In this document: piece by piece, positions 1-51,500 of the stretch | How the letters are laid out: each line of letters opens with the position of its first letter | Numbering within the stretch: the stretch's first letter is position 1 | DNA from: a virus | Virus record (IMG/VR): IMGVR_UViG_3300032293_001294 | Span: 1-64,000 of that record | DNA length: 64,000 bases | Direction: 5' to 3' (one strand) | Program-made: the position numbers and the translations under genes | Notes under the pieces: model-generated | Seen by the model: the letters and a program-made list of their open reading frames with translations, nothing else | What the model was told of the DNA's origin: nothing | Database searches by the model: none

Positions 1-338
1 ATATACCCACAGTCGTTTGTTGCAAGTGTTGATTCTGCAATACCCATAAAGTAATCTGGGTTAGCATTAATTTCACTTGGAACTGCTGGCTTCATTAAGA
101 TATGATCACCTTGAACACCAGCGAATTGTACCGCTTGTCCCTTAGTAATTGCTGACTGTGCTTTACCATACATGTATAAGTATTTTAAATCAGCTTTATT
201 AACGGCAGGTACAGACCAAGTTCCATCACCACGAAGAAAAGTAGAACTACTTGGAGTCCCTGTTGCTACAATGCTTGAAACATTGACCTCAGGATAGTCT
301 TGAACCCAAGCACTACCGTTCCACTTTTTTAGCTTCAT
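1..338 (-). CDS. Tail fibre-like protein, runs off the left edge (not in ORF track)
   Basis: ATG at 338 after an AAGGAG RBS; open frame MKLKKWNGSAWVQDYPEV...STFLRGDGTW...; KxWNGxxW and FLRGDGTW are common phage fibre motifs. Confidence 0.75.
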   Translation of the reverse strand, partial: MKLKKWNGSAWVQDYPEVNVSSIVATGTPSSSTFLRGDGTWSVPAVNKADLKYLYMYGKAQSAITKGQAVQFAGVQGDHILMKPAVPSEINANPDYFMGIAESTLATNDCGY

Positions 339-2131: not shown

Positions 2132-2536
2132 TTATGTATTGAACCAAATATCTCCAGTTTTATTTTCACTTGGAGCAGTATCACTTGTTACAACTTTGTT
2201 AGCATCTATGTTTTTAAACTGTGACGTTGCACTTTCGTACCGTAAAAACTGTCCATCAGTAGGATTATTAACAGTGATACTACCTAAAATTTGTAGCAAC
2301 TCGTTTAGTAATCCTGCGTCAATTGTTTCATACACACCAACAGTTTGACTTGAATAATTACCAAATAAAAAACGGTGAAGTTTTTCAAGATATTCAACGG
2401 TTACGTTAGTTTGTAGTTTAAGGGTGTTAACGACTTGATTCCATTCTTGGATCGTCAAACTATTAGCAGCTTGTTTAACTTGCTCTACAATCCCGTTACG
2501 AACTAATATAGGTTTTTTATCAATAAGTAAAGCCAT
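2132..2536 (-). CDS. Short tail-fibre anchor-like protein
   Basis: NPTDGQFLRY..TSQFKN and C-terminal TSDTAP...GDIWF fibre motifs. Confidence 0.6.
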   Translation of the reverse strand: MALLIDKKPILVRNGIVEQVKQAANSLTIQEWNQVVNTLKLQTNVTVEYLEKLHRFLFGNYSSQTVGVYETIDAGLLNELLQILGSITVNNPTDGQFLRYESATSQFKNIDANKVVTSDTAPSENKTGDIWFNT

Positions 2537-3003
2537 TATTTATTCACCACTCCTAGTACATAACCTTTAGAAATTAAGTAAAGTTCTTTATATTTAAGAT
2601 GAAATGCATCGAATATACTAGCAGCGGACATACTTCCAAACAATACGATCACAGTTTCGAAGTAAGCTGTAAATGCTACATCAATTGCATTTTCGATTAC
2701 ATACTTTAGCGTAAGTCCTAATGTAATCAATACAATAAACAATAATATCTTTGGGGTTGCTTTTACTAAACCTTTTAATAAACTAGGTTCCCATGAGCTA
2801 ACCCACCGCGGCATATCTGACGCTAGTTTAATAATACCTAGCGTTCCTACAATAATTGTTGGCATGACAATCTTATTAGATACTGGTGCTTCAGTAAAAC
2901 CTAACTTAACTGCAAAGTATATAAAAGGTAAAACATATCCTATTAAGAATCCAATCCAATAGTATCTGTTCTTTAACTTTGCATAGTTAGCTGTGGTACT
3001 CAT
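2536..3003 (-). CDS. Integral membrane protein (~4 TM), holin-like candidate
   Basis: Four hydrophobic segments in 155 aa. Confidence 0.55.
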   Translation of the reverse strand: MSTTANYAKLKNRYYWIGFLIGYVLPFIYFAVKLGFTEAPVSNKIVMPTIIVGTLGIIKLASDMPRWVSSWEPSLLKGLVKATPKILLFIVLITLGLTLKYVIENAIDVAFTAYFETVIVLFGSMSAASIFDAFHLKYKELYLISKGYVLGVVNK

Positions 3004-3503
3004 TACTTTGCTCCTACGTATTTACTTAATAAATCTCCTGCGGCTTTGACAACGGTTTCAACCGTTTGAACAACTGCTTCTTGGTTCACAACTGGTTTAG
3101 GTAGTTCTGGTGTAACACCTGCAGTTCCTTCAGAAACCACGGGTTTAACTGCCAATAACTTTGTAAACTCTGCTTGTAAAGCTAGCTTATCTTCCATAGG
3201 AAGTTTAGAAGCAATAACAATATAAGATAACGCTTTAAACGTAGCAACGTTAACTTGTTCTAAATAATGATCTTTAGCTTCTAATGCTTGGTGTCGTGCT
3301 TCTAAAGCATTGTACTTTTGCGCAATATCTTTAACTAACTGACTAGAGTTAGTTGTTTGATTTGTGTTTTGCAAACGTAATGCATTAAATTGAAAAATAG
3401 ATCTAACTTGCACAACAATAAAAGTAAGCAGCGTTCCTACGGTTACACCACCCGCGATCGACACGCCCCAGTACTCTTCTAAAAATTGAATAACTTGTTC
3501 CAT
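3003..3503 (-). CDS. Membrane-anchored coiled-coil protein
   Basis: N-terminal TM (VSIAGGVTVGTLLTFIVV) then coiled coil; GAGG RBS. Confidence 0.55.
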   Translation of the reverse strand: MEQVIQFLEEYWGVSIAGGVTVGTLLTFIVVQVRSIFQFNALRLQNTNQTTNSSQLVKDIAQKYNALEARHQALEAKDHYLEQVNVATFKALSYIVIASKLPMEDKLALQAEFTKLLAVKPVVSEGTAGVTPELPKPVVNQEAVVQTVETVVKAAGDLLSKYVGAK

Positions 3504-3520: not shown

Positions 3521-4516
3521 TTATCTTGTTACGTTACCTGCAGGATTACCTGTAGATACACGATTACTTGTTTCCGTCCATTGTGCTGCAGTCCATTTAC
3601 TTGGATCTGCACCATATAACGTAGTCATTTGACGGATTGTTTGTTGATATGCATCGCCTGCATCAGATGCAGCCATTGCGCTAGCAACTTGACCACGTTG
3701 ATTAGCCTGAGCTAAGAAGTCTGTGTATGCTTGATCTTGTGCAGTGTTCATACCGATTTGCGCTTGTAGTCTTTGATCATTTAACATCTGTGCGTTCTGG
3801 TTTAATGTATTAACATTCGTCATTAACATTTGCATATCTTGGTTAGCAATCTGTGATTCACTCATACCTGCTCTAAGTCTAGCCATACGTTCTCCACGTA
3901 CTTGATCTGTAATTTGTTTTACGGTTTGTGCTTGTTGTAATGCTGCTTGTTGGAATCCTACATCAGCCATCGTAGCAGCTTGTTGTGCTTGGTTCATGTA
4001 CGATTGTTCAAGACGGTTTAACATGTCAGCTCCACCAGTGCCAGGTGCTAATGAATATACATCTTGATAGTATTGATTAAACGCACCAAGTTGAGCTTCA
4101 TCAACGTTTACACCGCCTGCAGGTGTAAGCCCGTCAGGACTTGTAATAGTACCTATATCTGCTCTTAAATTTTCTGTAAAAGTAGGTTTATTGAGTGTTT
4201 CGTAAATAATTGGTATTTCAAATTGGTTTAAAGAAATACTATTATTGGTTAAATATGTTTCAAAATCATCTTGAGTTTTTCCTGATAAATCTCCATTATT
4301 ATCAATAAACCAACGTATGTAAGCTTGAACACCTTTTGCTTTAGCTTCATTACTAACTTGAATACTACTTGTGGTACCGATATTTAAAGTGCTCGTAGGA
4401 ATGCTATATGTTGTGCCTTTATGAGTTATATTAAAAAAACCATCATCTTTAGTATCAGATGTGTCTAATCTTTGTTCAGCTTCACCACCAAACCAATTAA
4501 GTTTTAATTCAATCAT
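3521..4516 (-). CDS. Putative ejection / internal virion protein with a Prp-type N-terminal leader
   Basis: Q/A/M/N-rich helical C-terminal half typical of podovirus DNA-transfer proteins; N-terminus MIELKLNWF-GG; lies downstream of the nozzle gene. Confidence 0.6.
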   Translation of the reverse strand: MIELKLNWFGGEAEQRLDTSDTKDDGFFNITHKGTTYSIPTSTLNIGTTSSIQVSNEAKAKGVQAYIRWFIDNNGDLSGKTQDDFETYLTNNSISLNQFEIPIIYETLNKPTFTENLRADIGTITSPDGLTPAGGVNVDEAQLGAFNQYYQDVYSLAPGTGGADMLNRLEQSYMNQAQQAATMADVGFQQAALQQAQTVKQITDQVRGERMARLRAGMSESQIANQDMQMLMTNVNTLNQNAQMLNDQRLQAQIGMNTAQDQAYTDFLAQANQRGQVASAMAASDAGDAYQQTIRQMTTLYGADPSKWTAAQWTETSNRVSTGNPAGNVTR

Positions 4517-4938
4517 ACAATGTCTCCTTTCTCTTCTAATGCTACAATCATCGTTTTTAAACGGTTTGTTTCATCAATAAGTGTTTGTTTTAAAACACGT
4601 ATTTCTTCTTCTAGTCTATAAAGATAGTCTTCAATGTCAGGTCGAATAGGCTTACTACCTAAGACTTGATATACATTATACGCTACTTTAGATTCATAGA
4701 TATGTATAATCGTACCTTTATTATCTAAAAGTTCTACTTTAATATTTACTTCACCTGGTTGTATTTCATCTGTTATGTTAATAAATGGACTTGTAAAACG
4801 TAAATGATTGATATATAAAACAGGATTTAAATGTTTTGTATTTGCTTCCAATTCAAATTTAACTACAGTATGTTCCTTTAATTCGGGAACAAACATAGTA
4901 TCAATTAATACTTTACCCTCTACAAGTTTTAAAATCAT
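4513..4938 (-). CDS. Hypothetical tail-associated protein
   Basis: ORF coupled to both neighbours by ATGA overlaps; C-terminal coiled coil. Confidence 0.5.
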   Translation of the reverse strand: MILKLVEGKVLIDTMFVPELKEHTVVKFELEANTKHLNPVLYINHLRFTSPFINITDEIQPGEVNIKVELLDNKGTIIHIYESKVAYNVYQVLGSKPIRPDIEDYLYRLEEEIRVLKQTLIDETNRLKTMIVALEEKGDIV

Positions 4939-7900: not shown

Positions 7901-9422
7901 ATGTTGTTCTAAACGTATCGATTGTAAAATTAGACAATTCAAATGCTGTAGCACTGTTAGTAGCTTTTGCAGGAAAGCTTTGATCTAACGTTGCATCAAT
8001 TTGCACTGTATCGCTGCTAGTTGTTGTAATTGTAGTAGCTTTAGGTACAATAAAAATTACAAAACGAGAACCTTGATAATGATTTAAATTAGGATCTTCG
8101 TTTCCTAAACTAATTGAAGTTCTAGAGGTATTAAAAATTTTTACTGGAGTTGAACTAACACCGTCATAAGACATCCATGGTGACGAAAAAACTACTTCTT
8201 TTGTTTTGTCTGTAACTTCTGTAGAAGTATTAAAAAATTCTACTTTATACGCCCACTTATTATTATTCAAAATAAAAGTTAAACTTGTAGTTCCTGACGC
8301 TGTAGCTGCCAGGCTAATAGTAATAGAAGTAGTACCAACATTAGTTACAGTTGTGTTAGCAGGTATTCCAGTTCCAATTACTTGTTGTCCTGTCTTAATA
8401 TCTTCTACATTAATATTTGTAATAATAGTACTTCCTGATGTTCTTGTACCTGTTCTAAATACTTGAAACTCATTATTTAATTGTATAGCCGCAGGGTTTA
8501 ATGAAAAGTACGGTTTAATTGTATAGTCTTTTCCGCGTTCAATAAAATTATTAACATATTGATTTGCTGCGTCGTATACATAAACAAAGTTACCAAGTGT
8601 AGTAATACTTCCTGAAGGTACTGGGTTTACACTATTAGGATTAATTGATTCTGGTTCTGTATAAAGATTTTGAAATACCGTAGGTATAATTGATTTAGAT
8701 ACAGCAAGATTCCGTTCAGTAGGAGCAAGTGTTGGATGCTCGAACATATAAGGAAGACCTTCAATAACAAGTGTATCTGCTGCATTTCCACCTGTCTCAA
8801 ATTGTCTATATCTAAGCTGCATTATAAAATTAAAAGATGGTTCTTGTTCATCTCCTGTATCTAATGTAACTTTTACTAAAGCACGGCTAATACCGTCCTC
8901 ATCATATATATGTTCTATTTTTGTATCAGGAATTGCTTTAATGTATTTAATATACTCTGTAATTGTTCCACTTAATTTTTGTGCTGCTGTACCTACAATA
9001 CTGTTATACCAATTTCTTACATAACTTACATTTGGAATAAGTACTTGTGTAAATAATAGATCCCAATCTTTATTAGCAATTATAGATTTAATAGGTAAGT
9101 AATATTCTGGAACATTGTACCCAGATATATCGGCTATGTATGCTACATTTGCAGTAATATCAAACAATATATAATCACCTATATTGTTATCTTTATATAT
9201 AATTGTGTTATTGCTCAATGAAATATGATTAACATTTTTTAACACTGTTGTTAAAAAACCTTCACGTGGTTTAACCGACTGTCCTGTATCAGAGACATCA
9301 AAGTTAACCATGTGTTTAAACAATCCTTCGTTTAAAGGATCGGTAGTTGCAACAATACCTAGATATCTAGTATTGTCGTAATATGATTTTTCAGGAAATC
9401 CCTGTACTGCTTTTCTAGCCAT
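4935..9422 (-). CDS. Tail nozzle / stabilisation protein with inserted beta-repeats
   Basis: 1495 aa, beta-rich; N-terminal YLGI...MVNFDV...VKPREG and C-terminal FKRFRDL...GKVFRLKL...GIIYK resemble P22 gp10/T7 gp12-type nozzles; follows the adaptor. Confidence 0.65.
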   Translation of the reverse strand: MARKAVQGFPEKSYYDNTRYLGIVATTDPLNEGLFKHMVNFDVSDTGQSVKPREGFLTTVLKNVNHISLSNNTIIYKDNNIGDYILFDITANVAYIADISGYNVPEYYLPIKSIIANKDWDLLFTQVLIPNVSYVRNWYNSIVGTAAQKLSGTITEYIKYIKAIPDTKIEHIYDEDGISRALVKVTLDTGDEQEPSFNFIMQLRYRQFETGGNAADTLVIEGLPYMFEHPTLAPTERNLAVSKSIIPTVFQNLYTEPESINPNSVNPVPSGSITTLGNFVYVYDAANQYVNNFIERGKDYTIKPYFSLNPAAIQLNNEFQVFRTGTRTSGSTIITNINVEDIKTGQQVIGTGIPANTTVTNVGTTSITISLAATASGTTSLTFILNNNKWAYKVEFFNTSTEVTDKTKEVVFSSPWMSYDGVSSTPVKIFNTSRTSISLGNEDPNLNHYQGSRFVIFIVPKATTITTTSSDTVQIDATLDQSFPAKATNSATAFELSNFTIDTFRTTYSNWKSRIDKINNLKSLRDAIRLISANAVFHVYNLTSSATKGEFEEFESSLEDNSTVNTRSFSINAAVEDTNYDMFLNGDKLIEFIETNNIFKSNYNITFKLLPFATKDTLTTTAEVNTFNSNSSFDTRTPYYFNQFPTDGENSNLKVPVNTFVQVINTSIAQHGYVYKQTSGTTSMTYTQVSTTGDVPNSTFFVKGAYYFDDRRDVYYQWNNATATIGSLTSVSNPTTEKITTRWFFASLNYWSGNSSFADYLTKNNVNINSDFFFFKKINNQTSLEANISELGNYSLPVINFQSAHQFGAMPIRIDLTTPGVNTYAPYLTRVHSRQDNKVYEQSDYGVYNGLGNNWVDLGIATNGSLTNVTRSFTRTNNSITITGSTTSLYVGMSITGTGITNGTTITSITDSNTLIMSLPATASGTSNLTFNNVVINLNAEPYSALNNYTVYNDTRTNTTYRWYNTSATVGTFTPYTNQILALEDEGFFDKGVTGIFYMKPYNDSEFLNSEGTSKNFEELETLKAVWGATSFTQTFNLVYTYDKDQVTFIEKFKEKEALQIQTSNTMTVFEDSRLLTWYENVLYISEEGKFYWFKERNRVEFGEEIVKVLQYKQIILVFTRQHLYAVYRVETVATQLNTATNQIEQNVTGSAWLKQTVLYNLLVNTDYTDVIQIFNQMILFYSEDGQLFMIRPSSQIDDQTRFSIQYFNKAANDILKNYEVYINERLASYGSPMRVNRNEIKIKALVSINFIKIIYYVPGVITYMLIYDVINNRYTAYDTLTFTNIFDKRFIDSGDLFITEQNNKLYFTLPYVEVNTRDNYVDMSFTNNFKKEGINCLIDTGNMNLNNHLFKRFRDLHVTFKNLNAGNVLFNLETMIDEIVARPFYNEQLQVIDSNNVSYYVTVKKEDKKDLIELVDVNQISEVATDVVKYSLTNNLFENNNMLMDFSEYTSSKLLTHRTSILGLGKVFRLKLQFISKGLYKLQNFGIIYKERRV

Positions 9423-10725
9423 TATAACCCCATAAAATTTCTACATTGTAACTTGTTAAAGGATCGTTTGTATTAATACTATTAGCATACCAACCATTAA
9501 CCCAACCTACTGGTTTATTAATTTCTAACACACGTGTTTTAATGATCAGTCGTTTACCTAGTACTGCTGGAAAAGCACCGGCTTCAATAGTAGTAACACT
9601 GTCTGGTATTACGATTTCAAATAAAGAAGGTGTAGCAGCAAATGCGTTTGCACGAATTGTAGTTAAACCTTGATTGAGTAAGATAGTATGTCCTTTAAAG
9701 CCATTAAATGCATTAGACTGCAGTTCTAAAATACTCTTAGGTAAATAAATACCTTGTGTTAACAAATCTGGTGTAGGTGGCGTAGGTGTCGTAATAAAAT
9801 TACTTTTAATTGTTTTAGCAATGATACTACCAATTTTTTCTGGAATAATTAAATTAATAAGTTTAGGTCTTGCATTTGTATTAATAGAAACTAAACCTAA
9901 ACTTGTAATATCCAAAGTATTAACAGAAGTCCAAAAAGCATATAAATTAAGATCAGCACGCATAGGTACTTTTATTCCACCAGTTACTCCAAGCTGTGCT
10001 ACTGTATAACCATTTGATGCTGTAACACCTGCGGCACGATGCTCTCTAGTCCAACCAGCAAACGTATATATAAACTGTCCATCTAAAGAAGCAAACTCAT
10101 TAAATCCTGCAAGAGGATATTTAATTGTAGCAACTTCATCATATAAATATACTTTACTGTCAATTGTAAAAGAATTACCTGCAGGTACATAAAGATTGTT
10201 GTTGTCTGGATAATAATTAATTCTGAATCTAAACGTAGGAATATTTAAGTTACGTTCATTGTGTTGAATAATACCTTGTGCCGTATCTAAACCAAAGAAT
10301 ACGCCTTGATCTGGGTTTTGTCTGAATTCAACAGGAACACTGTTAAACTCTTTTTGAAACATATCAAATAAACCTTCTTGCATTTCAAGTAAGTATTTAT
10401 TATAAATGGTTGTAAATTCTTCATCACGTGCTAGTATTTCTGCTGCAATGTAGGGGATAATTACACTATGAAAGTATTCTTCTTTGATGATTTCATACTC
10501 TGCAATTGTTTGTTCATCACCATTTTCATCTATTTCTATTTGAGGAATACTATAAGTATCAGTAGGCGTTTTTAAATACAGTGTAAGTTTAGGATACTTT
10601 GTACCCAAAAAACTATTGATCTTTGTAATAGCTTTGTCAGCATCGTACTTAATATCAAACCAAGTAAGGTTATACCTTAAGGTTAACTGATTAAGACGGT
10701 CAATTAGTTCTTGTTGTGTTAGCAT
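9415..10725 (-). CDS. Head-tail adaptor fused to InlB-B-like and BspA-type LRR domains
   Basis: Helical N-terminal adaptor-like ~150 aa; YTFAGW...LNLYAFW; IYLPKSILELQSNAF, LNQGLTTIRANAF, IVIPDSVTTIEAGAF. Confidence 0.6.
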   Translation of the reverse strand: MLTQQELIDRLNQLTLRYNLTWFDIKYDADKAITKINSFLGTKYPKLTLYLKTPTDTYSIPQIEIDENGDEQTIAEYEIIKEEYFHSVIIPYIAAEILARDEEFTTIYNKYLLEMQEGLFDMFQKEFNSVPVEFRQNPDQGVFFGLDTAQGIIQHNERNLNIPTFRFRINYYPDNNNLYVPAGNSFTIDSKVYLYDEVATIKYPLAGFNEFASLDGQFIYTFAGWTREHRAAGVTASNGYTVAQLGVTGGIKVPMRADLNLYAFWTSVNTLDITSLGLVSINTNARPKLINLIIPEKIGSIIAKTIKSNFITTPTPPTPDLLTQGIYLPKSILELQSNAFNGFKGHTILLNQGLTTIRANAFAATPSLFEIVIPDSVTTIEAGAFPAVLGKRLIIKTRVLEINKPVGWVNGWYANSINTNDPLTSYNVEILWGYNG

Positions 10726-10815: not shown

Positions 10816-11763
10816 TTACTTTTTACGTTCAGCTGCTTGAGATAACAAATCTGACAACGACGGTCCGCTATTATTAATAGGTTTAGGTTGTGCTGGTTGT
10901 GCTGGGTTTGCAACTGGTACTTTAGCTTGACGAGCACGTTCTTCTTCCCATTTAGTTTTAGCTTGTGTAACAGCAGTATCAATTTGTTGTTTTAACAACT
11001 TATCACGGTAAACAAGAATGTAGAGATCTTGTAAGTCTCCACCCTGTGCTAACCATTGGTATGGATTTTTCTTTACAGACATTGCGTCTTTAAAGAAGTT
11101 GTTAACTTCAGAACCTTTAATATTCATATTTTGTTGAAGATTAGTAAGGGCACGATCCATTGAAATTTGAAGTCTTTGCTTTTGAATTTCAACCTTTTCT
11201 CTATCAATACGTTCAATTTCAGCTTGAACTTCAGGGGTAATTCCTTTGGCTTCTGCTTTAATTTTAGTATCAGATTGATCCATTGCTTTAGTTAAAGCAT
11301 CATAATCGATCTTACCTTCCTTCATGAATTCTTTAAGTTTAAATTCATAAGTTCCAGTAGTATACCGTTGTACAAGCGCTTCAATCTTTTCTTTACTAGC
11401 TTTTTCAGTAGCATACTTATCCCGAATTTCTTTCATCGGGTTTATTTTGCCGTCTTTCTTTTCTTCTGGTTTAATATCTGCTGGTTTAACCTCAGCCGAT
11501 TTAACTTCAGTTGTAGCGGGTGCTGATGTTTCAGTTGCTGGTTTTGCAGGTGTTGGTTCAGCTAACTTTGCTTGTACCAATTGATCAGCTGCTTTATCAG
11601 TAGCAGTAGCAGTAGCTGCTTCAACTTTAGGTTGTTCAGTTGTCGTCGTATTGTTGACAACTGGAGCATCAGCAGTTGCTGGAGCTGGGGTTGGAGCTGC
11701 TGCAGTTGGTTTATTACCTGCAGCTTGACTTAACACGTCATTTAAACTAATTTTGTCTGCCAT
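10816..11763 (-). CDS. Putative capsid scaffolding protein
   Basis: Disordered A/P/T/E/K N-terminal third, helical charged core, downstream of portal. Confidence 0.6.
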   Translation of the reverse strand: MADKISLNDVLSQAAGNKPTAAAPTPAPATADAPVVNNTTTTEQPKVEAATATATDKAADQLVQAKLAEPTPAKPATETSAPATTEVKSAEVKPADIKPEEKKDGKINPMKEIRDKYATEKASKEKIEALVQRYTTGTYEFKLKEFMKEGKIDYDALTKAMDQSDTKIKAEAKGITPEVQAEIERIDREKVEIQKQRLQISMDRALTNLQQNMNIKGSEVNNFFKDAMSVKKNPYQWLAQGGDLQDLYILVYRDKLLKQQIDTAVTQAKTKWEEERARQAKVPVANPAQPAQPKPINNSGPSLSDLLSQAAERKK

Positions 11764-11920: not shown

Positions 11921-12274
11921 TTATTTTTCTCCTTTAAACATTTTTAATAAATCGATGTATATTTTGGCTTCAATAATAGACTTGTCTATTTTATCTTGCA
12001 TAAACTTTTCAACTTCTTTGTCAGATGCTAGTACTTGGTTATCTTTGATAATGTTTTGAATATCTCGAATAGTTGCAAGGTTTACATCAAGACTTTGATC
12101 AACTATAGCAGTGGGTTTTGGAATGTGTATATCAGGGACTTTTTTACCTAAAGATACTTTTGAAACATACGACGCTGATACACCATACTTTTTAGCAACA
12201 TCTTTGTTTAGCATTCCTAATCCTACGTCGGCTAGAATTTGCATATCAATTTCTGCACTAATTCGTTTTGGCAT
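11921..12274 (-). CDS. HTH DNA-binding protein
   Basis: GMLNKDVAKKYGVSASYVSKV helix-turn-helix; AAGGAGG RBS. Confidence 0.7.
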   Translation of the reverse strand: MPKRISAEIDMQILADVGLGMLNKDVAKKYGVSASYVSKVSLGKKVPDIHIPKPTAIVDQSLDVNLATIRDIQNIIKDNQVLASDKEVEKFMQDKIDKSIIEAKIYIDLLKMFKGEK

Positions 12275-13496
12275 TTTGCACCTCCTTTAACTCTTTAGGT
12301 ATATCTTTCTTTAAGTCCGCTAAGTAAAGGAGTCCAATTGCACGTCGACTAATCAAGTTATTAACAAGTTGCGTATCCATAAATACATTACTGTAATCAA
12401 TTGACAATGGTATTTGTAAGATAAGCGGTGCAATCTTAGATATCGCATTGACAACAATCCAGAAGGGATCTTGTTGATAAGAAGATACGGCAGTTACTGT
12501 AAATAAAACTGCGAATAAGAATGTATTAATAAGTGCCCATAAAACTTTACTACCTGCATCTTTAGCAATACGTTTTTCGTTACTATTAATTAATGAGTAA
12601 CTGTCAACACTTAATCCAGAATTATCACTGCCATTGTAAACAAACATTGGACTAATGTACTTAAAGTGTTTAACGTGTCCATCCACAACATATTCTTTAA
12701 TGTATGAATCATCTAACAATTGTAGTAGACGTTCTTTCTTTTTAATATAACGACGTTCTTTCCAGGAAAGTTTACCGATTATTTTAAGTGATGATGCAGC
12801 GTCTTCAGGTTTATTACGTAATGTTTCAAAGTATGTTTTAAGTTTTTTACGAACTTCATAAGTTGTTTTTTGTTCTAACTTATCAATATTATACTTAACA
12901 TTAGTTTTATGTTGTTGGATTTTACGATGGTAGTTAAACACATCATGTATCCATGGTTCAAATGTAACAGGGTCTAAATGTTTTTCAGTCATATCTTCGA
13001 CTTGGTTTGACAAATCAACATAACGTTTGTATTTATCTTTAGCTAAAACAATTAAGTAGTTGAATAAACTATAAAACAAAATAATAGCAGAACCAATTGA
13101 AATAGTCGTAGACACGTACCAAAATGGATATTCAAAAAAGAATTGTGTATACACTTGTACTTTAAAATTGTCTGGTATTTCTACTTCAAACGGGTTTGTA
13201 CCCGGATTATCAATAACGTACGTCGTTATATATAGATTTATATTTTGTTGAGAGAACCATGTTAAACGATAGTTTACGTTTTCTGCTTTCATGATTTCAT
13301 ACTCACCATACGTACGATCAACAGCGCTAACTGTGTATTGCGCTTGTCCTTCGATAACCGGCAACACACCGTTAATACCAAGTACAATCAACAAAGACAA
13401 AAGTAAAAATATAACACTTCGTGACTTTTTGTTTGTCACAATCTGCGATGCTTTTTCCACCGCTTGTTCTACTTTTGATTGTCTTACTTCTGCCAT
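12258..13496 (-). CDS. Multi-pass membrane protein
   Basis: Two N-terminal and about two C-terminal TM segments around a basic soluble domain. Confidence 0.6.
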   Translation of the reverse strand: MAEVRQSKVEQAVEKASQIVTNKKSRSVIFLLLSLLIVLGINGVLPVIEGQAQYTVSAVDRTYGEYEIMKAENVNYRLTWFSQQNINLYITTYVIDNPGTNPFEVEIPDNFKVQVYTQFFFEYPFWYVSTTISIGSAIILFYSLFNYLIVLAKDKYKRYVDLSNQVEDMTEKHLDPVTFEPWIHDVFNYHRKIQQHKTNVKYNIDKLEQKTTYEVRKKLKTYFETLRNKPEDAASSLKIIGKLSWKERRYIKKKERLLQLLDDSYIKEYVVDGHVKHFKYISPMFVYNGSDNSGLSVDSYSLINSNEKRIAKDAGSKVLWALINTFLFAVLFTVTAVSSYQQDPFWIVVNAISKIAPLILQIPLSIDYSNVFMDTQLVNNLISRRAIGLLYLADLKKDIPKELKEVQNAKTN

Positions 13497-13745: not shown

Positions 13746-14180
13746 TTAAATGTGGATGACGTATTCTATTTGTGTATCTTTACTTTTAAGTACTTTAGCT
13801 TTAATAAATTTAGCTAATGTTTGCATGCGTTTATTTTCTAAATGTACAATAAAGTGTATTGGTCTTATATACATTTTTAACTGGATAATCATTTCAAGTA
13901 ACACAGGTAATGATCCTAAACGATGCTTTGGATCTACATACATTTCTGTAATAAATAATTCATTATCATTATTTAAATCGAAGCTAGTAAATCCAATTGT
14001 TTTTCCTTCGTCATTAAGAAGCATCACGCACTCACCTTTAATAACTTTATAATGTAAGTTAGTTAGTTTTACAAAAAAGTGTTGATTATCAAAGAATAAT
14101 AATTTTTTATCTTCTTCAGACATTTGACCAAACATTTCAATAACTTTATATAAGTCAGGGTGGCTGCTGTAATGTATCAT
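13746..14180 (-). CDS. GNAT-like acetyltransferase
   Basis: GKTIGF...ELFITEMYVDPKHR.G (motif A-like) and VHLENKRMQ (motif B-like). Confidence 0.6.
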   Translation of the reverse strand: MIHYSSHPDLYKVIEMFGQMSEEDKKLLFFDNQHFFVKLTNLHYKVIKGECVMLLNDEGKTIGFTSFDLNNDNELFITEMYVDPKHRLGSLPVLLEMIIQLKMYIRPIHFIVHLENKRMQTLAKFIKAKVLKSKDTQIEYVIHI

Positions 14181-22098: not shown

Positions 22099-22308
22099 TT
22101 AGTCCTCTTTCTTTTCTACGTAACAGACTTCATAGCCCATTAACGTGTTTTTAGTTTTTACAAACTTGTTGTTAAGCGCAAGTGAGACCATTGGTCTTGA
22201 CACTGCTATGTAAACGGCAACTTCTTCTTGTGTATGGAAGATTTTCCACATATCATCATCTAGCTTACGTACACCGATTAAACCACGACGATGTTGACGC
22301 TTACTCAT
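22099..22308 (-). CDS. Small HTH (NUMOD1-like) protein; start re-assigned to ATG 22308
   Basis: IFHTQEEVA.YIAVSRPMVSLAL...GY; GGAGG RBS. Confidence 0.5.
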   Translation of the reverse strand: MSKRQHRRGLIGVRKLDDDMWKIFHTQEEVAVYIAVSRPMVSLALNNKFVKTKNTLMGYEVCYVEKKED

Positions 22309-22495
22309 TATCAACCTCCACAAGTTGATGTTCTTCGAATGTCCAACCTTCAGGTACAACAGGTAAGCTAACTAAGTAAATGTTGCCATCCAATACTTGC
22401 ACAACTTTACCGATCATACCCATCCCGATATTTTTATGAATATCTTTAAGGTAGATTCTTTTGACTGCGACTTTAGTATTAACTTTAAATGCCAT
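22301..22495 (-). CDS. Small SH3-like hypothetical protein; start re-assigned to ATG 22495
   Basis: AAGGAG RBS; FKVNTKV...GMIGKVVQV...YLV...WTF. Confidence 0.5.
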   Translation of the reverse strand: MAFKVNTKVAVKRIYLKDIHKNIGMGMIGKVVQVLDGNIYLVSLPVVPEGWTFEEHQLVEVDNE

Positions 22496-22496
22496 G

Positions 22497-22808
22497 TTAC
22501 TTCTCCTTGTATTTAGCTTGTAGCTCAATATCATTTGGGTAGTCTCGTTGAAGCTCGCTAAGAATAAACAATAGGTTCTCAATTAAGAGTTCACCTAACT
22601 TAGTGTGTGTCATAACCACTAATTCAAAGTCTCCGCGTTTGAGATTGAAACGTACGCTTTCCTGTACGCTTAGTTTTTCAAACGCATTAACTGTCATGGT
22701 TACCGCAGTCGATACTGCAGCACACACTAAGTTTTGGTTAAACGCGTGATCATTAATAACCACACGTGTGTAACCTTGCTTATTCTTTTCGACGACGCTT
22801 TTGATCAA
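22497..22808 (-). CDS. prp: Prp-family ribosomal-processing cysteine protease (DUF464/YsxB)
   Basis: INDHA...NLVCAAVS (His/Cys dyad), ~100 aa, C-terminal LSELQRDYPNDI; AAGGAG RBS before TTG. Confidence 0.85.
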   Translation of the reverse strand: MIKSVVEKNKQGYTRVVINDHAFNQNLVCAAVSTAVTMTVNAFEKLSVQESVRFNLKRGDFELVVMTHTKLGELLIENLLFILSELQRDYPNDIELQAKYKEK

Positions 22809-22968
22809 GGTCTTTCTCCTTCTTTAATTGTAACTCAACTTCTAGGTACCCAAGTTTATGTTCGAGCTGTTGACGAATCTTTGGGTTTGATTCCATCTTG
22901 ATGGTGATTTTTAAAAACCGAATTGCTGCTTCTGGTGTTTCGAATGTTCTGCCTAATACTTTGATCAT
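22780..22968 (-). CDS. Hypothetical protein
   Basis: AAGGAG RBS, coupled ORF. Confidence 0.5.
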   Translation of the reverse strand: MIKVLGRTFETPEAAIRFLKITIKMESNPKIRQQLEHKLGYLEVELQLKKEKDLDQKRRRKE

Positions 22969-42553: not shown

Positions 42554-42594
42554 TCTAGGATAGCAAGCTGATTACTTGCTACCTAGATTACTTT
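42554..42594. terminator. Terminator-like hairpin between convergent arms
   Basis: TCTAGG-A-TAGCAAG-loop-CTTGCTA-CCTAGA then TTACTTTT. Confidence 0.65.
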
Positions 42595-45500
42595 TATTTC
42601 AATATTGTAGCTTGTGATTGTCTGTACCGAACGTATTGTCTCCATTGAATATTCTTAACTAAACGATATGGATTAGTAGTAGGTCTACGCATTTTACCAT
42701 ACTTAGTAAACCAATCCTTGTATATATTTTCATACTTAGCCCAACGTCCATTACGTCCATAACGATAACGACGTGGTGTATATTTTTTAAACTGACTTAT
42801 ATCATACCCAATACCAGATATAGTTCTAAATAAAGTTGCTTGTCTTGTATCTAATATACGTGCTAATGATGGATCATTGCGTGCAATATCTTCTCTAAGA
42901 TTTGTACCCAACACCATGTCAGATAAACCAGTAGCAGTATTTACAAATCTTGTACCAAACCCAACAACAGCTAATTGAGCAAACCCTTTTAAAGCATCAC
43001 CATCTTTAAATAAACTTTGTATACCACGTAATAAAGGAGATGCTCTTCTAGTAAGTTCTATGTCAGTATTATAAATAAGATTCATGACATCAAATGCCCC
43101 GTTACCTATTCTTAATCCCCAATCTTTAGCAAATGGAATCCATCCTTGACGGATTTGATATTTAGTAAAGTCATCATATTCTTTAGTTTCTTCATCTCTA
43201 TATTGTGCATACCAACCATCAATAAAGTCAGATAAAAATCTCCAATACTTAGGACTCATTAATCTATCAATCCAGTTATTAATAGAACGTACAGGGAAAG
43301 ATAAGAATGGAATATCAGCAAGCAATCTAGTTTCTAACGGAGAACGCATACCATAATTAAACCAGTGATTTAAAGAATCTATTGTAGCTTGATCAAATGT
43401 TTTGTTATACAACATTAAGTTATAAAAGAAGTTAGTAATACGTGCAGCGTTTTCTATCTTAGTATTAGAATCAGTATACCAAGCAACAGGATTAAACTTA
43501 TTTAACCAACCACCTTTAACTTTATCTAATTGTTTTACAATTTGTTTATAAGTCATATTAGATTTATATGAATCTTTATAACCTCTATATTGTTCAAAGA
43601 ATTTAGGAAGTAATTCAAAACGGTCTTTACGTAAGTAGTCACTAAGTGCTTCTGTATTCATGAACGCACTTAATTGTTTTAATAAAGGTTTTTTAAATTC
43701 ATACTCATCAACTTTTTCTGCAATAGTTTTATGTCTTACAATTTGTCCCTGATTATTTTTAGCATCAGTTCTTAAACCAGCAACCCAAGTATTATTAATA
43801 ATTCGGTTATCATACATTTCAATGTATTCACCGAACTCTGTTTTAGATGCAAAAATAACAGATTGTTTTAACAAGTCTAAATACTTATCAATATTATCAG
43901 CGTTAGCTTCTTTTAATTTTCTAAATAAATTGATAGCTACTTTACGTCTTGTTTCAATATGTCTATTATTATTTTTAAGTGTGTCAGATATTTTAATATA
44001 GTTGAGTAAGAATTCTTTAATTAAATCTAATTTATTATTAATTACATTAGAATCTTTAACTGGTAATTTACTTGCTTTTAAAACATCTTCATAATGTAAA
44101 CCAATATTAATGATACTAATACTTAATTCATCGCTATATTTTTCATACAACTTCATAAGTTCTAATGAGTTTAATGTACTATTAACATATCTATTAGACT
44201 CAATTAACTTAGGAATGATAATAGAGTTACTAAACATTTGATTAACACTATCAAAAATATTACGTGCTATGAAAGCGGCGTTTAATTTAGAAAGATTTTT
44301 TGACATGATTTGTAATGAGAAGAAAAACTTATCTACTTTATTAGGCAATTGATAAGGAGAGTACACATCATTCATCGTGTCCATCCAGTCATTTAAATCT
44401 ACAAAACCAATGATATCACCTTTTAAATTTTGATCATAGATTTCTTGGAAGTCTTCAAAGTTATCTACAATGACTTCTTTTAAAGTAAAGTTAATATTTT
44501 TATTTGTAGCTAAAATTAATTTAGGATCAATACGGTTATACACTTTATTATCAAATACAACTTTACCACCAGCTCGTTGCCATGCTTCAAGGTTTTCTAA
44601 AGCAGAAATCTTTTTACCATTTACAACTGTATCTTTAAATAATAAGTCATTATAAATAGAGTTATCAATTAAACCAAACTTTTGACCTACTTTTTCTATA
44701 ATGTTTAAATCTTTTTTCTTATTAGTTGGGAATAAAACATCATCATAACGTGGATCATATTTTCTAATGCGTTCTGTAACAAGTTTAAATCTACCTTCAT
44801 CAGGATCAGCGTGTCTAATCTGCACAAGTTTAAACTGTTGTTGCTTTGTTGTGTATAGTTCGTAAGCATTTTTTAAACTTCTAATTCTATTATTAGAACT
44901 ACTGTTATCAACCATGTTCTTTAATAAAGTAATGCGATTATACATACTAAGTAATGAACGTTCTTTATATGCTTTTAAATCTTGCTCAGTTAAAACTTTA
45001 GGTTTCTTAACGGTAGTATCACCCATACCTTGACCACCTAAACCATCATCATCAGGAGTTCTTAATAAAAGAATTAAACCACCGATGTTATCAACCACAG
45101 CTTTCTTTAAAAGTTTGCTTCTAATATCTGCTTCTTTAGTATTAAGTTGAGTTATTTCTTCCTTAATAGTTTCTACTGGAGACTTACTTTGCTCAAGTAA
45201 TTTAACGTAGTTGTCTAATGGATCAATGCTTTCTTCAATTTCTTTAATTTCATCTTGGAATAATGAAATTAATTCTTGAATCTTATCAGATTTTAACTTG
45301 TTATTTGTAGCTTTGTTGTTTAATTCAGACAATCTACTTATGTTATTTCTTGTTAATGTTTCTTCTAATTTAGATTTAATTTCTTTAGATTCAATAATCG
45401 TTTCAGCATCTGTTTTATATTTTCTATTTTTAGTATCAGAATTTATTTTTTTAATAGTTGCTTCATATTCTTTTTTAGTTTCTAAAAGAACTTCGATTTG

Positions 45501-48500
45501 TGTTCTAAAACTGTTAATTAAATCTTTATATTGTTTAACTGCACCATTAAATGTAGCGTAGTTTAAATTATCTTGCAGCTCTTCACTTACTTTATTCATA
45601 GCTTCTCTACTAATTTCTTCAATAGGTGCTTGTAAATGTTCCATTGTAGGATCATCGTTTATAGCAAGTTTTAATTGAAGATTATTTTCATCAACAGATT
45701 TATTGATTTCATCTTTAGTTGGGAAATCTTCTCTGGTTAATAATTTTTTATTACCAAATTCATCTGTTCTATAATACCCTTCTTCAAAGTTATTAATGTT
45801 ACTGAAGAAATTAAATATAATCTTTTCTTCATTTTCATATTTACTATTAAAGGTTTTTTGGAAATCAGCATCAGCATATCTAAAGTTAAATATTTTAATG
45901 TTAACAATGTTATTAATAACATTATCTTTTGATGTGGTAAATTTTTCTTCCCCAATATAATTTCTTCTTACAACTGCTGTAACAGAGTCAATGTAATCAA
46001 CAAAGTCTACAAGTTTATAGAATGGAATATCATGTGTATCAAAGAATTGAATAGCTTTTTCTAAATCTTTTAACTTTAAATTCTTTGGATTATCTAAACC
46101 TTTGTTTAATTCTTTTACATTGTTTATTAATTCTACAATAAGTGTGTCAGGGACAAACATATTAAATAAGAATACTTTTGCTTTTTGTTTTATTACTTTA
46201 TCTAAATCTGATTTAGCATCTGCAACTTTTGTATAAGAATCTGAAATTAAAACTTGTCTTCCTGGATTTTCTTCAAACCATTTTTTATTAACTTCACTCT
46301 TAGATGTACGTTTTAATGTATTATCAAAACGTTCATTCATTTCTCTGTCTAGATTAATAGCCATACCAAACAAACTATCATTGTCATTACTACCAATAAT
46401 AACTTTTCTTCTTGCAGATTTTTCAATTAGTTTTTTCGTCTTATCTAATATACGTTTGGAAGCATCTGCTGCTTTTACTTCTTGACCATAGTGTTTAGGC
46501 AAGTCAATAGGTTCTTGAATTAAGAATGACATTCTATTTTGTGCAAGTCTTTCAATAATTTGTTGATTAAAGTATTCATTTAATAATGTTTCTGGGAGTA
46601 CTTCAGATTTAGAACTTAAGTAATTTTTCATAACATTAACATCTACGAAGTAACGCATAGCAATTTCTTTTATAAAGTTTAAGTTTAATTTTTTCTTTGT
46701 TAAATCAGATAGATCTTTAGAATTAAAAATACTTAAATACTCTTCAATAACAGGGTCGTTTTGTTTTGATGTTGATTTAAGCCAATCTTTAACTTCTTGC
46801 ACTTCTAAAGTTTTATCAGTGTCTACTAAACTTAATGCTTTTAAATAAAAGTCTTTTAATTTTTTAAGTTCTTCTGCACCAGTTTTAACTTTATTTTTAA
46901 CAATTAATATATCATCTATGATTTCATTAATATCATCTTTGTAAATATCATAGAATTCTTTTTCAAAATTAGTAGCTATTCTAGATCTTAATACATCCGA
47001 AAACCAGTAAGCATTTATAAAGTAATTATAAAATTTATATTTAGAATCAAAATTTTCTTGAACAGCATCTTTTAATACAACTTCTCCTTCTACTTCTCTT
47101 GTGTTCTCTTCGTTTTGTAAAAGCTTTTGATACTCTTGATTGGATTCATTAACCCATGAGTCGTATTCATTTTTACTTAATGAATTAGATTTTAAAGCCA
47201 AAGCTTGTAATAAAGAGTCAAATGTAATTGCGCCATCTGTATCAATAGCACCTATTTGTTCCCAGAAATAACCATACTTTAACTTGTTAATTGTTTTATA
47301 CGTTGATAAGTGCGAAGAACTAAATTGACTCTTACGTTCAGAACCTACTCCTGGAATCGTTGTTTTACCTGCACGAACACGTTCAGTTGTTGTAATGTGT
47401 GTTTCATAATAAGAAAGGATATTAACTAAATATTCGTATACTTTAGAATATTCAGTTGTGCCAATTAATTCTTTGTTATTTAAAATATCACGTTCTTCTT
47501 TATCTAAAACCTTACTGTATATTTTAATTAAAGTATCAGGAATTTCAATGTTAGGAACTTGTTTAACAATCTTAGTTTCAACTTTTTCTTTTGTTTTAAA
47601 TAAATCTCCAATAGTTTTTTCAATCAAAGGAAGATACTTAACATCTTCAAGACTACTAAATCTAGAACCAATACCAGCAATCTTGCCTTGTAATAAAGGA
47701 GCATTATTAATCTTAGACCAAGTAAGTTTACCAGTAGATACAAACCATTGGTTTTGTTTAGGATCAAAAACATACACAGGTTTACCTAACTCTTGTGACA
47801 TAGCTACGCCCCAACCAGTACCACCATCTACTGTGCCATCATTTTTTAAATACCCGGCAGCAACAATTGTGTCTGCATCATTAATAATAAAGTGATTTCT
47901 TATTTGTAATAACTTTGTTATAGGATTAGTTGGAACATTTTTGTTTAATAATGCAGCAGCTTTAACTACAGCTTTTTCTGCTGTTTTAACTTCAACATCG
48001 CTCATATCATTAACAGACATACTAAGAACAAAATTAGGTTGATCTTTAGGTTTGTCAACATCTCTGGCTACGTATACATTTGTCTTAATATTATTTTCAC
48101 GTGCAAACTTTTGGAACAAACTATCAGAACCTGGAGCATTGCCACTACTTAATTGTACAAATGGTTGACCTTTAACTTTAACGTCAACTTTTTTAATGTC
48201 ATTTTCAGGTTTAACTTTCCCGTATATAACCTTTTTATTTTTAATTAAATCTTCAATACTATATAGTTTATCTATAAAGTCTTTGTTATTATTATAATAT
48301 TTTAATAGCAGATCTTGATTTTCATAATCTTTAAGACTTGTAATAACACCACCAAAGTTTTCACCTTTGTTTTTTAATTTAATATGAGCATTAACAAATG
48401 TTTTTAATAAGCTTGCAAAATTTGGATTGTTCTTTTCTTGATCTAAAGATTTAATTTCTTTACGATTAGTTTCAAAATAATCCATCAATTGATTTAATAG

Positions 48501-51500
48501 ATTGGCTTCTTGAATAAAGTCATATCTTTCAATAGTCAAATACTCTTGATTGCTTCTGATAACTTTAGGAATAGCATACTTACCTACAATATTTCTTTCA
48601 AATTTATAGGTTATTCTTTGTGGATATTTTAAATCATGGACAATATTGTAGTCTACAAAACCAGGCATAATACTTTGTACCAGTTTTTCAATACTATCTT
48701 TAGGACTAATAGTGTAATCTGGAATGTCGTTTTCTAAACTTCCAAAAAACTCTGTATCTGATTTTTCTAAATAACTTACAAGATTAACTACCTTACCTTG
48801 ATCCTTAATTTGTTTTTCATCAAGCGTATAGTAGTTATAATCTGTAGCTAAAAGCGGACGTAAAGGTGCGTCTTTACCTTCAATAGCATCTAAACCTACT
48901 ATAGCCATACCAAAAGCGTCACCGTCAGTATCAGCACCCATCATTGGATAACCGAATCCATTAACATAAGTTGCTGCTGACTTACTAAAACCAATAACTT
49001 TATACACAGGAACAGCGTTATAGTCTTGTTGTGGCGAACGGCTGCTTAATAAGTAAGCATATGTTTGATAGAACTTGTAATTAGTTCTTAATAACTTCTT
49101 AAGTTTTTCTTTATAATTAATGACAGGTCCTACAGCGTCCCAAAGTTTTTTGTTATCAGCTTCTAATAACCCGCGAGAATTTAAGAAATCTTCACGATCT
49201 TTACTATCTGTTAAGGTTAGTAAATGTTCTACATAATAGTTTATCTTTTCACTATCTGTAAGTTCTTCTACACCTATAATATTCTTTTGTTCTTTATTTC
49301 TATTTTGTAAAACACTCCAACCACTTGCAGGTATTACAATTTCACCGACATCTAGTGTTCTATCCAAAGCAAACTGCGCACGTATACCGCTTAATGTTTT
49401 AAACGACGCTTTATAGAATGCACTTTCCTTACCACTATAAAGTTTATCTGGAATATTAGCATCGGTATTCTTAACTAAAATATCTATTTCACTTTCGTAA
49501 TACTTCTTCATAGCAGGATCAACACTATTATTTAACATGCTTAAAAGTCTTACATACTTAATACCATTGGTATAAATAAGATTGTGGATAAGTTTATCCG
49601 CATATAACTTTTCTAAGTTATCTATTAATCCTTGTTCTTTTTTCTTAGTTATATTATCTTTAGTAACATTTAAAGTATTTAAAATATAATCTGAAAATCC
49701 TAGTATTCTTGGACGTGCTAGATTCTTAGCATTTGTTTGATCAAATGCAAATACTCTATTAAAATCATTTAAACCAATTTTGTTAAGTATTAATTGTAAT
49801 GCAGCAGGACCTATGGTTTGTCCAGTATCAACGTTGCTGTTATCATCTAATATATTAAATACAAACTTACCAATTGTCTTTGTATTAGATTCAGTATATT
49901 GAGCTTGTGGGTTATTCTCATGGTCAGCCATAACGTAGACGTTTCCTCTGACAAAAGAACCAGTCTTTAAATTAATGGTAGCGTAACGTCGTTCTAATAA
50001 TTTATATGCGTCTAATTTTGCAGTATTAATATCTTGATAGGTTAATGGTTTATTTTGTAGACGAGACTTAGCAATAACAATAGGAACTTTAATTGGTGGT
50101 AGTTTATCAATATCAGGATTGTTTTTAACATCATCAATTAAAACCCATTGATAGATATCATTTAAATCAAAACGAGCGTTTCCTTTTGCGTCATAAAAAC
50201 TAGTTAAAGATTTAATTTGATCTTTATATTTAAATAAAAGATTACTTAATCCTTCTAATTCATCTTGTGTTTTATAATATTTATTAATTAAAATACCATC
50301 TTCATTAATGTTCTTTTTAAACGTTGCGTTTAAATACTCTTTGATTTCAGGAATATCAAATACTTCTTTTATTCTAGACGGTACAACTGCTTTACCATCT
50401 TGGTATGTTTCATTGTTTAAATAACTTGTTATATAGTTATATAACATTTCTACATACATACCTGATGTTCCACGTTTTGTTACAGACTCTGCGTTTGATA
50501 AGAAGAAAGCACCATATGTTTTATGTAGATCTTGTATAGGATAGATAGTACCTTTAAAACCGTGGTGTGTACCTAACCAAATTTTAGCTGACAATTCATA
50601 GCCAAATTCTTTTAAGAAATCAGCATCAACACCAATTGTATCAAGACCAACACGTGGATCATTAACCATTACAATAGGTAAAACTGTACCAAATTGATGT
50701 AGTTCAGCATCTGCTTTATAGTTTTGGTACATTTCAGCACTCATAACGTTAGGCATAAATAATTGTGAATATTTATTACCAAACTTTCTAATAAATTTAT
50801 TTCTTAAATCAGGACTTAATGGATTTTTATTTATAAACGTTTCCATTAATTTTTTACCTGGGGCAACTTTATCAGGTATTTCTTTATACATACGATTAAG
50901 TAAACCAATAGTAGTATACGTAGCCATTAAATGCTTAGCATGTAATTGTGTACGAATAGGGTTATCATTCATCGCAAATGGGAAGTTAAATGGAAGTCTT
51001 GGTTTTAGTTTATACACAACAGCTGTACTTGCTTCTGAGTTTAATTCTAAAGAAATATTATTTTCATCCAACCATTTATGATCAATATGTTCTAAATTAT
51101 AGTCATAACTATACTCATCACTAATTTGGTTGACTAAAGAACCACGTTCAAGGGCATTGTATTTAGAAGTAATTCTATTATAAATACCATTATAAACTTC
51201 TTTTAAATTAATATTCTTAATACCTTTATCATTAAGTAAGTTAATTTGATTAATAACAGCTTTTCTAATTATCTTGCTGATATTAGTAATCTTTAAATAT
51301 CTATCACTTGCACCAAACTGTTCGTACGGGAATACTTCGCCTTCATTCTTTATTAAATAATTTAATAAAATATCAATTGCGTTTTTACTAGAATCAATTA
51401 CTTCACCTTTTTCATTTATATCAGGTATTAAATATTCTTTAGGTATATTATCTGGTCCTAATACGTACTCAGGTTTTCCACCTTTAGGTTGGAAGTAAAA

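Follow-up and report, generated by a model that had tools for sequence, protein, structure and literature searches.

The window analysed here is a stretch of 64,000 bp, bases 1-64,000 of the 75,709-bp IMG/VR record IMGVR_UViG_3300032293_001294, which comes from an uncultured freshwater phage. One gene of its structural module, on the minus strand at 3521-4516, encodes a protein with the N-terminal nonapeptide MIELKLNWF. This nonapeptide resembles the leaders cleaved by the cysteine protease Prp from L27 and from the virion proteins of phage 80alpha, leaders of this kind head most close homologues of the protein, and none is found elsewhere in the phage, which carries a prp gene of its own. We suggest that the nonapeptide is a removable propeptide of the L27/80alpha type, which would be cut after Phe9 by a Prp protease: in the present lineage the phage's own Prp (22497-22808) and, in sister phages that have a different form of the leader (Q-type, see below) and no prp, the essential Prp of the host, as in 80alpha. 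The mature protein would then consist of a variable N-domain and a conserved helical hairpin, and it would be a conserved component of the virion or of its assembly module, possibly an internal one leaving through the tail like T7 gp14 or P22 gp7. Taken as a whole, this is the explanation that we favour as reasonably likely.

The leader and its conservation

3521..4516, minus strand: leader-bearing gene of the structural module; 331 aa, starts MIELKLNWFGGEAEQ; family without a Pfam or PHROG model
4490..4516, minus strand: leader, residues 1-9, MIELKLNWF; in register with the S. aureus L27 leader MLKLNLQFF|A and with the 80alpha leaders (PMC9405229, Table 1)
4524..4530, minus strand: Shine-Dalgarno (SD) sequence AAAGGAG of the leader-bearing gene; AGAGAAAGGAGA context kept in relatives

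AAAGGAG precedes the start codon ATG (4514-4516) by 7 nt. The start codon shares an ATGA with the stop codon of the preceding gene, and there is no in-frame start upstream of it. Since the ribosome-binding context is the same in the relatives, the start may be considered secure. The leader is the extreme N-terminus of the protein, nine residues counted from Met1, which falls within the 8-14 residues characteristic of Prp propeptides, and the predicted scissile bond is Phe9|Gly10 (codons 4490-4492 and 4487-4489). Aligned with the S. aureus L27 leader (I-E-L-K-L-N-W-F against L-K-L-N-L-Q-F-F), it features the L27-type pattern of hydrophobic residues at P8, P6 and P4, an aromatic residue at P2, and Phe at P1, the position before the cut. 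The register of the motif and the comparison of homologues both agree with the original prediction, which had read this N-terminus as a Prp leader of the L27/80alpha type.

A word-index search yielded 274 homologues of the protein at E<=1e-3, and a full HMMER profile search of 1.84 billion representatives yielded 136 clusters at 50% identity. The set of close homologues (n=125) was formed by the best 120 cluster representatives and five genome copies. The leader is present in 84 of them, so that its absence from homologues, named beforehand as a ground for abandoning the prediction, is not what is seen. It comes in two main forms, KLNLQQF|G (Q-type, 64 proteins) and LKLNWF|x (W-type, 17 proteins, the present one among them); three leaders are intermediate, and 41 homologues have none. 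The Q-type leaders, MKLKFKLNLQQF|G, differ little from those of the 80alpha scaffold and capsid proteins, KLKFNLQFF|A and KLKLNLQHF|A (PMC9405229, Table 1).

Within a leader type, positions P8-P1 are 93% identical, the next 105-167 residues 33%, and the C-terminal domain about 80-82%. The leader codons for Leu, Asn, Gln and Phe differ synonymously among the relatives, and the residues are constant; this synonymous variation points to selection on the peptide, and hence, as judged from the alignments, the leader is under selection of its own. The leaderless homologues start at the predicted mature end (M-ASTVDING.. against ..NLQQFGG-ASTVDVSG..). In a tree built on the conserved core, the proteins with a leader fall into two well-supported groups, with one stray outside them.

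A third flavour, MIKLNIQLF|GG, is seen in about 20 distant clusters at 50% identity, and the leader of one distant relative, P0254, MIELNLQFF|GG, is almost that of S. aureus L27. The carriers of this flavour (P0254, P0258, P0222, P0245 and about 15 more distant members) have 365-473 aa, and the same clade contains a few degenerate leaders (WDMKLF|GGG, HIQLF|GD). None of the distant LNIQLF-type relatives was found in IMG/VR, where a dedicated scan added no genome, or among cultured phages.

The motif is confined to the leader-bearing protein, as demonstrated by a regular-expression scan of the window, a loose N-terminal scan of all open reading frames (ORFs) of eight related genomes, and scans with position-specific scoring matrices (PSSMs). 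The PSSMs were built from the W and Q leaders, and their scans included internal sites of a giant 8,230-aa protein of the late region. Internal Prp sites in the latter were rejected, as no PSSM match exceeded the background. Neither the scaffold-like protein nor the major capsid protein has a leader; for the scaffold, this had already been noted in the original prediction.

10816..11763, minus strand: scaffold-like gene of the head module; protein starts MADKISL..

The possibility that the leader-bearing protein is itself the scaffold was rejected, given this separate scaffold-like gene in the head module; the much better conservation of the C-domain than is usual for scaffolds would also disfavour it.

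Overall, we regard the leader with good confidence as a genuine Prp-type propeptide, although Gln, expected at P3 for the S. aureus enzyme, is replaced by Asn, a point taken up below.

The phage Prp and its distribution among relatives

22497..22808, minus strand: predicted phage-encoded Prp cysteine protease; 103 aa, TTG start; PF04327; phrog_4478 peptidase
22722..22748, minus strand: codons from His21 (22746-22748) to Cys29 (22722-22724); His-Cys loop 4 residues shorter than in S. aureus Prp
22816..22821, minus strand: SD sequence AAGGAG of prp, 7 nt before the TTG start
22780..22968, minus strand: upstream neighbour of prp, 62 aa, left border of the indel; its homologue abuts the homologue of the downstream gene in G001-G003
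22301..22494, minus strand: downstream neighbour of prp, right border of the indel; probable start ATG 22494, MAFKVN..

The prp ORF matches PF04327 (Peptidase_Prp) with 48.3 bits (cut-off 27, E 1.2e-12) over profile positions 1-89 of 90, and with 44.5 bits in a six-frame search of the genome. His21 and Cys29 align to the catalytic His22 and Cys34 of S. aureus Prp (4PEO), and the DHAFNQNLVCAAVS core and the His/Cys dyad are invariant among 17 phage Prps. With a score above the Pfam cut-off and the dyad in place, the prp gene claimed for this phage in the original prediction is confirmed: by its sequence the product is a true member of the Prp family (MEROPS C108), with predicted catalysis. The gene has its own SD sequence within the same leftward operon. 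Only 16 close clusters of its product were found among 5.8 billion proteins. The IMG/VR scan produced no close relative, and the scan of genome contigs with the phage Prp alignment produced no bacterial one, hence no clue to the host. The phage Prps are 80-98% identical to each other, and the gene was probably gained once.

In all 17 phage Prps the His-Cys loop is shortened by four residues compared to the solved bacterial Prps (DHAFNQNLVCA against GHADHGEYGHDIVCA). The deletion falls in the region of the Gly21-Gly26 segment of S. aureus Prp, the ordering of which was discussed in a structural comparison (PMC9261936), and is thus a candidate for a difference in specificity.

Among the eight IMG/VR genomes compared (the present phage, G000, and its relatives G001-G007), prp was found only in the present phage, using the Pfam model and a local hidden Markov model of the phage Prps with all filters off. 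Four relatives, G001-G004, are near-complete and have the Q-type leader and no prp, and G005-G007 have no leader. The prp gene forms a clean indel flanked by conserved genes, which in G002 are 76-89% identical to those of the present phage.

The prp-bearing contigs longer than 19 kb are of 75,709 (the present record), 75,167, 74,985, 74,336, 22,490, 20,687 and 20,496 bp. Three of them (74,985, 74,336 and 22,490 bp) agree in size, to the bp, with contigs that encode W-type homologues (P0027, P0042 and P0022), with at least one shared source in each case. As prp and the leader gene span 19.3 kb in the present genome, even the 22,490-bp contig can hold both. Hence, of the seven prp contigs, four are linked to a W-type leader, and they make up all the W-type contigs long enough to be judged: G000 directly and three by the exact bp match. 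On the other hand, prp is present in none of the four Q-type genomes tested directly and in none of 15 Q-type cases if 11 further contigs of 46-78 kb, judged by bp mismatch, are included. The probability of such perfect separation, calculated by hand and uncorrected for kinship, is 1/70 if the direct cases alone are counted and 1/3,876 if the indirect ones are added. The metagenome scan covered at least 19 loci; the one long W-type contig among those listed, L013, ends short of the expected prp position.

On the tree of the C-domain, the four prp-linked proteins occupy four places beside Q-type neighbours, P0042 being 93% identical to the protein of G003, and, given the starred branches, the W label must have changed at least four times. 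Thus the link between prp and the W leader is not simply clonal in the leader gene.

The co-occurrence of leader and prp, suggested at the outset as a check, is therefore observed in a restricted form: phage-borne Prp is seen only with the Trp-type leader. Of the claim that the phage Prp matures the leader-bearing protein, the part concerning the W leader gains support from this link; on the other hand, most leader-bearing relatives have no phage prp, so that it is not needed for the leader as such. We consider it fairly probable, from the sequence comparisons, that in the present lineage the leader is cut by the phage's own Prp, and, by analogy with 80alpha, that the host Prp is probably the enzyme in the prp-less relatives.

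Some hints on specificity come from the leaders themselves. In the complex of S. aureus Prp, the P1 and P2 phenylalanines are buried, the P3 Gln is hydrogen-bonded, P4 and P6 are hydrophobic, and there is little room at P1' (PMC9261936). The Q-type leaders have Gln at P3, followed after the cut by P1' Gly in 63 of 64 cases and Ala in one. The W-type leaders have Trp at P2 and Asn (16 of 17) or Ser (one) at P3; their P1' is Gly in 12 of 17, including Gly10 of the present phage, and N, S, D, Q and T in one case each, and the prp-bearing contig of 74,985 bp has NWF|T. Thus the Gly-Gly N-terminus, predicted to be exposed by cleavage, does not hold as a conserved feature. The relaxed P1' of the W-type is what would be expected if these leaders were read by a different enzyme, the numbers being small.

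It is possible, if somewhat unlikely, that the specificity of the phage Prp has drifted (P2 Trp, P3 Asn, roomier P1') and that this enzyme and the LKLNWF leader constitute a private pair of protease and tag, outside the reach of the host Prp. If so, maturation of the virion protein would be freed from the host enzyme, perhaps allowing growth in hosts whose Prp reads another leader or which have no Prp, and the presence of prp in some sister phages but not in others would amount to a natural experiment on protease-tag co-evolution. A scan of 185,579 species genomes for L27 starting with ..NWF|AxKKG showed no L27 among the 120 stretches listed, which is not evidence of absence.

Several observations weigh against assigning the leader to the phage Prp. 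Three of the four links between prp and the W leader rely on equal bp size. The prp-bearing phages may constitute one backbone clade, as their Prps look like a single acquisition, and then the four cases would not be independent. The leader lacks the P3 Gln of S. aureus Prp substrates. Finally, the W leader, with an aromatic P2 as in L27, seems well suited to an ordinary Prp, and the host Prp might cleave it too.

In one alternative, the host Prp is the enzyme that cuts the leader throughout these phages, acting on the Trp form as well. The phage Prp would then serve another purpose, keeping or redirecting host L27 maturation and ribosome assembly during infection or providing extra Prp capacity, and the co-occurrence of prp and the Trp leader would reflect shared descent. 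The host Prp is evidently sufficient for the family, since the four near-complete relatives have the leader and no prp; the W-type retains the L27 pattern of hydrophobic P8, P6 and P4 and aromatic P2-P1 (PMC9261936); and the similarity of the phage Prps suggests one acquisition. However, the sole L27-like tag in the phage is on the leader-bearing protein, prp separates the two leader types completely (four of four W-type contigs against none of four Q-type genomes and none of the 11 further Q-type contigs of at least 46 kb), the W leaders are scattered over four or more positions of the C-domain tree, and P1' is relaxed in the W-type only. Given both sides, we rate this alternative as unlikely.

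Less probable still is that the motif stays uncleaved, serving as a short beta-strand for folding or for recruitment to the particle and owing its likeness to L27 to an extended amphipathic binding strand. In favour of this reading, the N-terminal sequence of the 80alpha scaffold is needed for assembly, and its cleavage is dispensable (PMC5744158); deletion of the P22 gp7 leader has little effect (PMC8402733). However, the match extends to the residues of the cut site, Phe at P1 and the nearly invariant Gly at P1' of the Q-type; the leaders of distant relatives such as MIELNLQFF|GG are nearly identical to real L27 leaders; the leaderless homologues start just past the predicted cut; and a dedicated prp travels with one form of the leader. 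We therefore consider an uncleaved strand improbable.

A chance likeness of a short hydrophobic N-terminus is very improbable: a single nine-residue match to the loose motif is only marginally significant (about 0.1 expected per genome of ~100 genes, a hand estimate), so that the homologue comparison decides, and there the leader recurs in two thirds of the close homologues and in the distant clusters, adjoins the most variable region of the protein and shows synonymous codon variation, while the conserved SD sequence and ATG argue against gene-calling artefacts at the N-termini of the homologues.

The predicted mature protein and similar known systems

4151..4459, minus strand: variable N-terminal globular domain, residues ~20-122; AlphaFold2 pLDDT 80-97 in the whole model, 86.9 when modelled alone
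3524..4096, minus strand: C-terminal domain, residues 141-331, rich in Gln, Ala and Met; predicted long helical hairpin, helices 161-216 and 220-286

The AlphaFold2 model of the leader-bearing protein was built with 48 homologues. Residues 125-143 between the two domains are predicted to be a disordered linker, and in many homologues the N-domain is replaced by another domain. No convincing fold match was found for the N-domain alone, the best VIA wide hit having Z 5.4 and BFVD giving none. With the full model as query, Foldseek produced no match in PDB or BFVD at E<=0.001, and the ESM Atlas yielded only unnamed viral clusters (score 0.90). The best structural matches of the C-domain, obtained with an exhaustive aligner on 48,161 chains, are two chains confirmed to be T7 gp14, from its post-ejection channel: 8e4g_a (Z 10.4, rmsd 3.2, 127 of 127 residues) and 7ey7_A (Z 9.2, rmsd 2.0, 102 of 102 residues), Z values below ~13 being common for long helices.

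The protein had been described as an ejection-type, internal virion protein. Of the T7 internal proteins, gp14 leaves the virion first; it forms a hexameric helical channel and has predicted membrane-inserting helices (PMC8954989). Gene position and the weak match of the hairpin to gp14 are what favours such a role here. Weighing against it, there is no sequence relationship to T7 gp14 (hhalign of the family alignment, probability ~0.1%, 0.08%), and no transmembrane (TM)-like segment is seen in the protein, the maximum 19-residue Kyte-Doolittle mean being 0.25; TM-like segments are found instead in the two downstream genes. Hence the ejection label cannot be retained as given, and an internal or ejected virion protein, as suggested by gene position and the model, is quite conceivable but somewhat doubtful.

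As to known systems, the closest is S. aureus phage 80alpha, where the host Prp processes the scaffold gp46 and the capsid protein gp47, as well as bL27 (Wall et al. 2015; PMC5744158; PMC9405229). The likeness lies in the short N-terminal leader with alternating hydrophobic residues and a terminal Phe, followed by a small residue, and, for the prp-less relatives, in an enzyme that would have to come from the host. Unlike in 80alpha, the tag is not on the capsid or scaffold protein but on a single protein, of an undescribed family; the present phage brings its own prp; and its leader has P2 Trp, P3 Asn and a P1' Gly rather than Ala, this position being variable among the W-type relatives.

The Prp motif has also been noted on the major tail protein of phi13 and on the capsid protein of phage 80 (PMC5744158). 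Here, too, one leader is shared by virion proteins that are not homologous, which suggests a general role of Prp in large self-assembling complexes; those were single observations, however, lacking comparative support or a phage-borne enzyme.

The capsid-maturing protease of Cp-1 is the other member of MEROPS clan CR (PMC9405229). Like Cp-1 and PHROG 4478, the present system combines a small cysteine protease with the Prp fold, encoded by the phage, and N-terminal trimming of a virion protein, the latter being predicted here. In Cp-1, however, it is the major capsid protein that loses ~40 residues, whereas here a non-capsid protein has a nine-residue L27-type tag, and, among otherwise syntenic sister phages, the presence of prp varies with the leader type.

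P22 gp7, a gp14-like ejection protein, loses a 20-residue N-terminal leader to the host protease OpdA (PMC8402733). Similarly to T7 gp14 and P22 gp7, the leader-bearing protein is encoded in the tail/internal-protein part of a podovirus-like module and has a predicted long helical hairpin. It differs from them in size (331 against ~200 aa), in the extra N-domain, in the predicted processing enzyme, and in having no sequence similarity and no hydrophobic helix. The host is probably Gram-positive-like and would have no outer membrane, unlike the hosts of T7 and P22.

It was known from earlier publications that Prp cleaves L27 and, in 80alpha, the scaffold and the capsid protein; the phi13 motif and the phage proteases of the Prp fold (Cp-1, PHROG 4478) have likewise been published. 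New are the protein family, the presence of a sole tagged protein per genome, the several leader flavours within one family, and the prp polymorphism that tracks the flavour. The tag thus heads an undescribed and widespread family of the phage structural module, with its 136 clusters, no cultured relative and at least four flavours. Prp is the essential L27 maturase in Bacillota and is pursued as a narrow-spectrum antibiotic target (PMC9405229), which is why its specificity matters. The sister phages with and without prp may bear on the determinants of this specificity, on the orthogonality of phage and host Prps, and on the reason for trimming virion proteins, and short, specific, genetically portable protease-tag pairs are useful tools.

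The genome and the neighbouring genes

4513..4938, minus strand: upstream 141-aa gene, translationally coupled to the leader-bearing gene by the ATGA overlap; syntenic in all relatives
2536..3503, minus strand: two downstream membrane-protein genes, of 166 aa with one TM-like segment and of 155 aa with three (hydropathy scan); syntenic in all relatives

The leader-bearing gene is syntenic in all eight related genomes, lying within the structural module between the gene of a 1,495-aa protein and the two membrane-protein genes. Pfam and PHROG scans produced no match for its product or for those of the immediate neighbours. In the order of transcription, the minus-strand late region encodes the terminase, an SU10-like portal, a 412-aa membrane protein, the scaffold-like protein, a 436-aa leucine-rich repeat protein, the 1,495-aa protein, the 141-aa protein, the leader-bearing protein, two membrane proteins, fibres, the capsid protein and the giant protein, and this order is the same in all seven IMG/VR relatives compared whole. 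No cultured relative was found by nucleotide and protein searches of 50,697 GenBank phages with the locus, the leader-bearing protein and two distant family members as queries.

Beyond the window, the record contains the gene of the 666-aa major capsid protein (L005:4761-6761, MANEKLL.., phrog_1357 with E 7e-14), that of a tail fibre of 1,297 aa, and the start of the giant ORF. The latter occupies 42594-64000 on the minus strand of the window and continues to genome position 67286 (L005:1-4287), encoding 8,230 aa from a TTG start. It directly follows the capsid gene and a 112-aa gene, and each of the seven relatives has a homologue with 26-32% identity. Its one PHROG match is DprA-like (E 7e-9, residues 2135-2276 of the translation of 42594-54593, minus strand).

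The ends of the record (window 3-338 and L005:8743-12708, both on the minus strand) contain near-identical, not identical, stretches of a tail-fibre N-terminus (..TFLRGDGTWSV.AVNKADLKYLYMYGKAQ..). This suggests either a circularly permuted, essentially complete genome, despite the CheckV estimate of 69%, or two paralogous fibre genes.

Three further genes of the structural region deserve a comment. The head module includes a gene for a 144-aa GNAT-type acetyltransferase-like protein (13746-14180, minus strand; Pfam 20.8 bits against the cut-off of 20.7), present in G001-G004 and missing from G005-G007. The 412-aa protein (12258-13496, minus strand) has three TM-like segments and is found between the portal and scaffold-like genes in all eight genomes, an unusual position for a membrane protein. 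Finally, the 436-aa structural-module protein (9415-10725, minus strand) has a C-terminal leucine-rich repeat of the BspA type (PF13306, E 3.9e-9).

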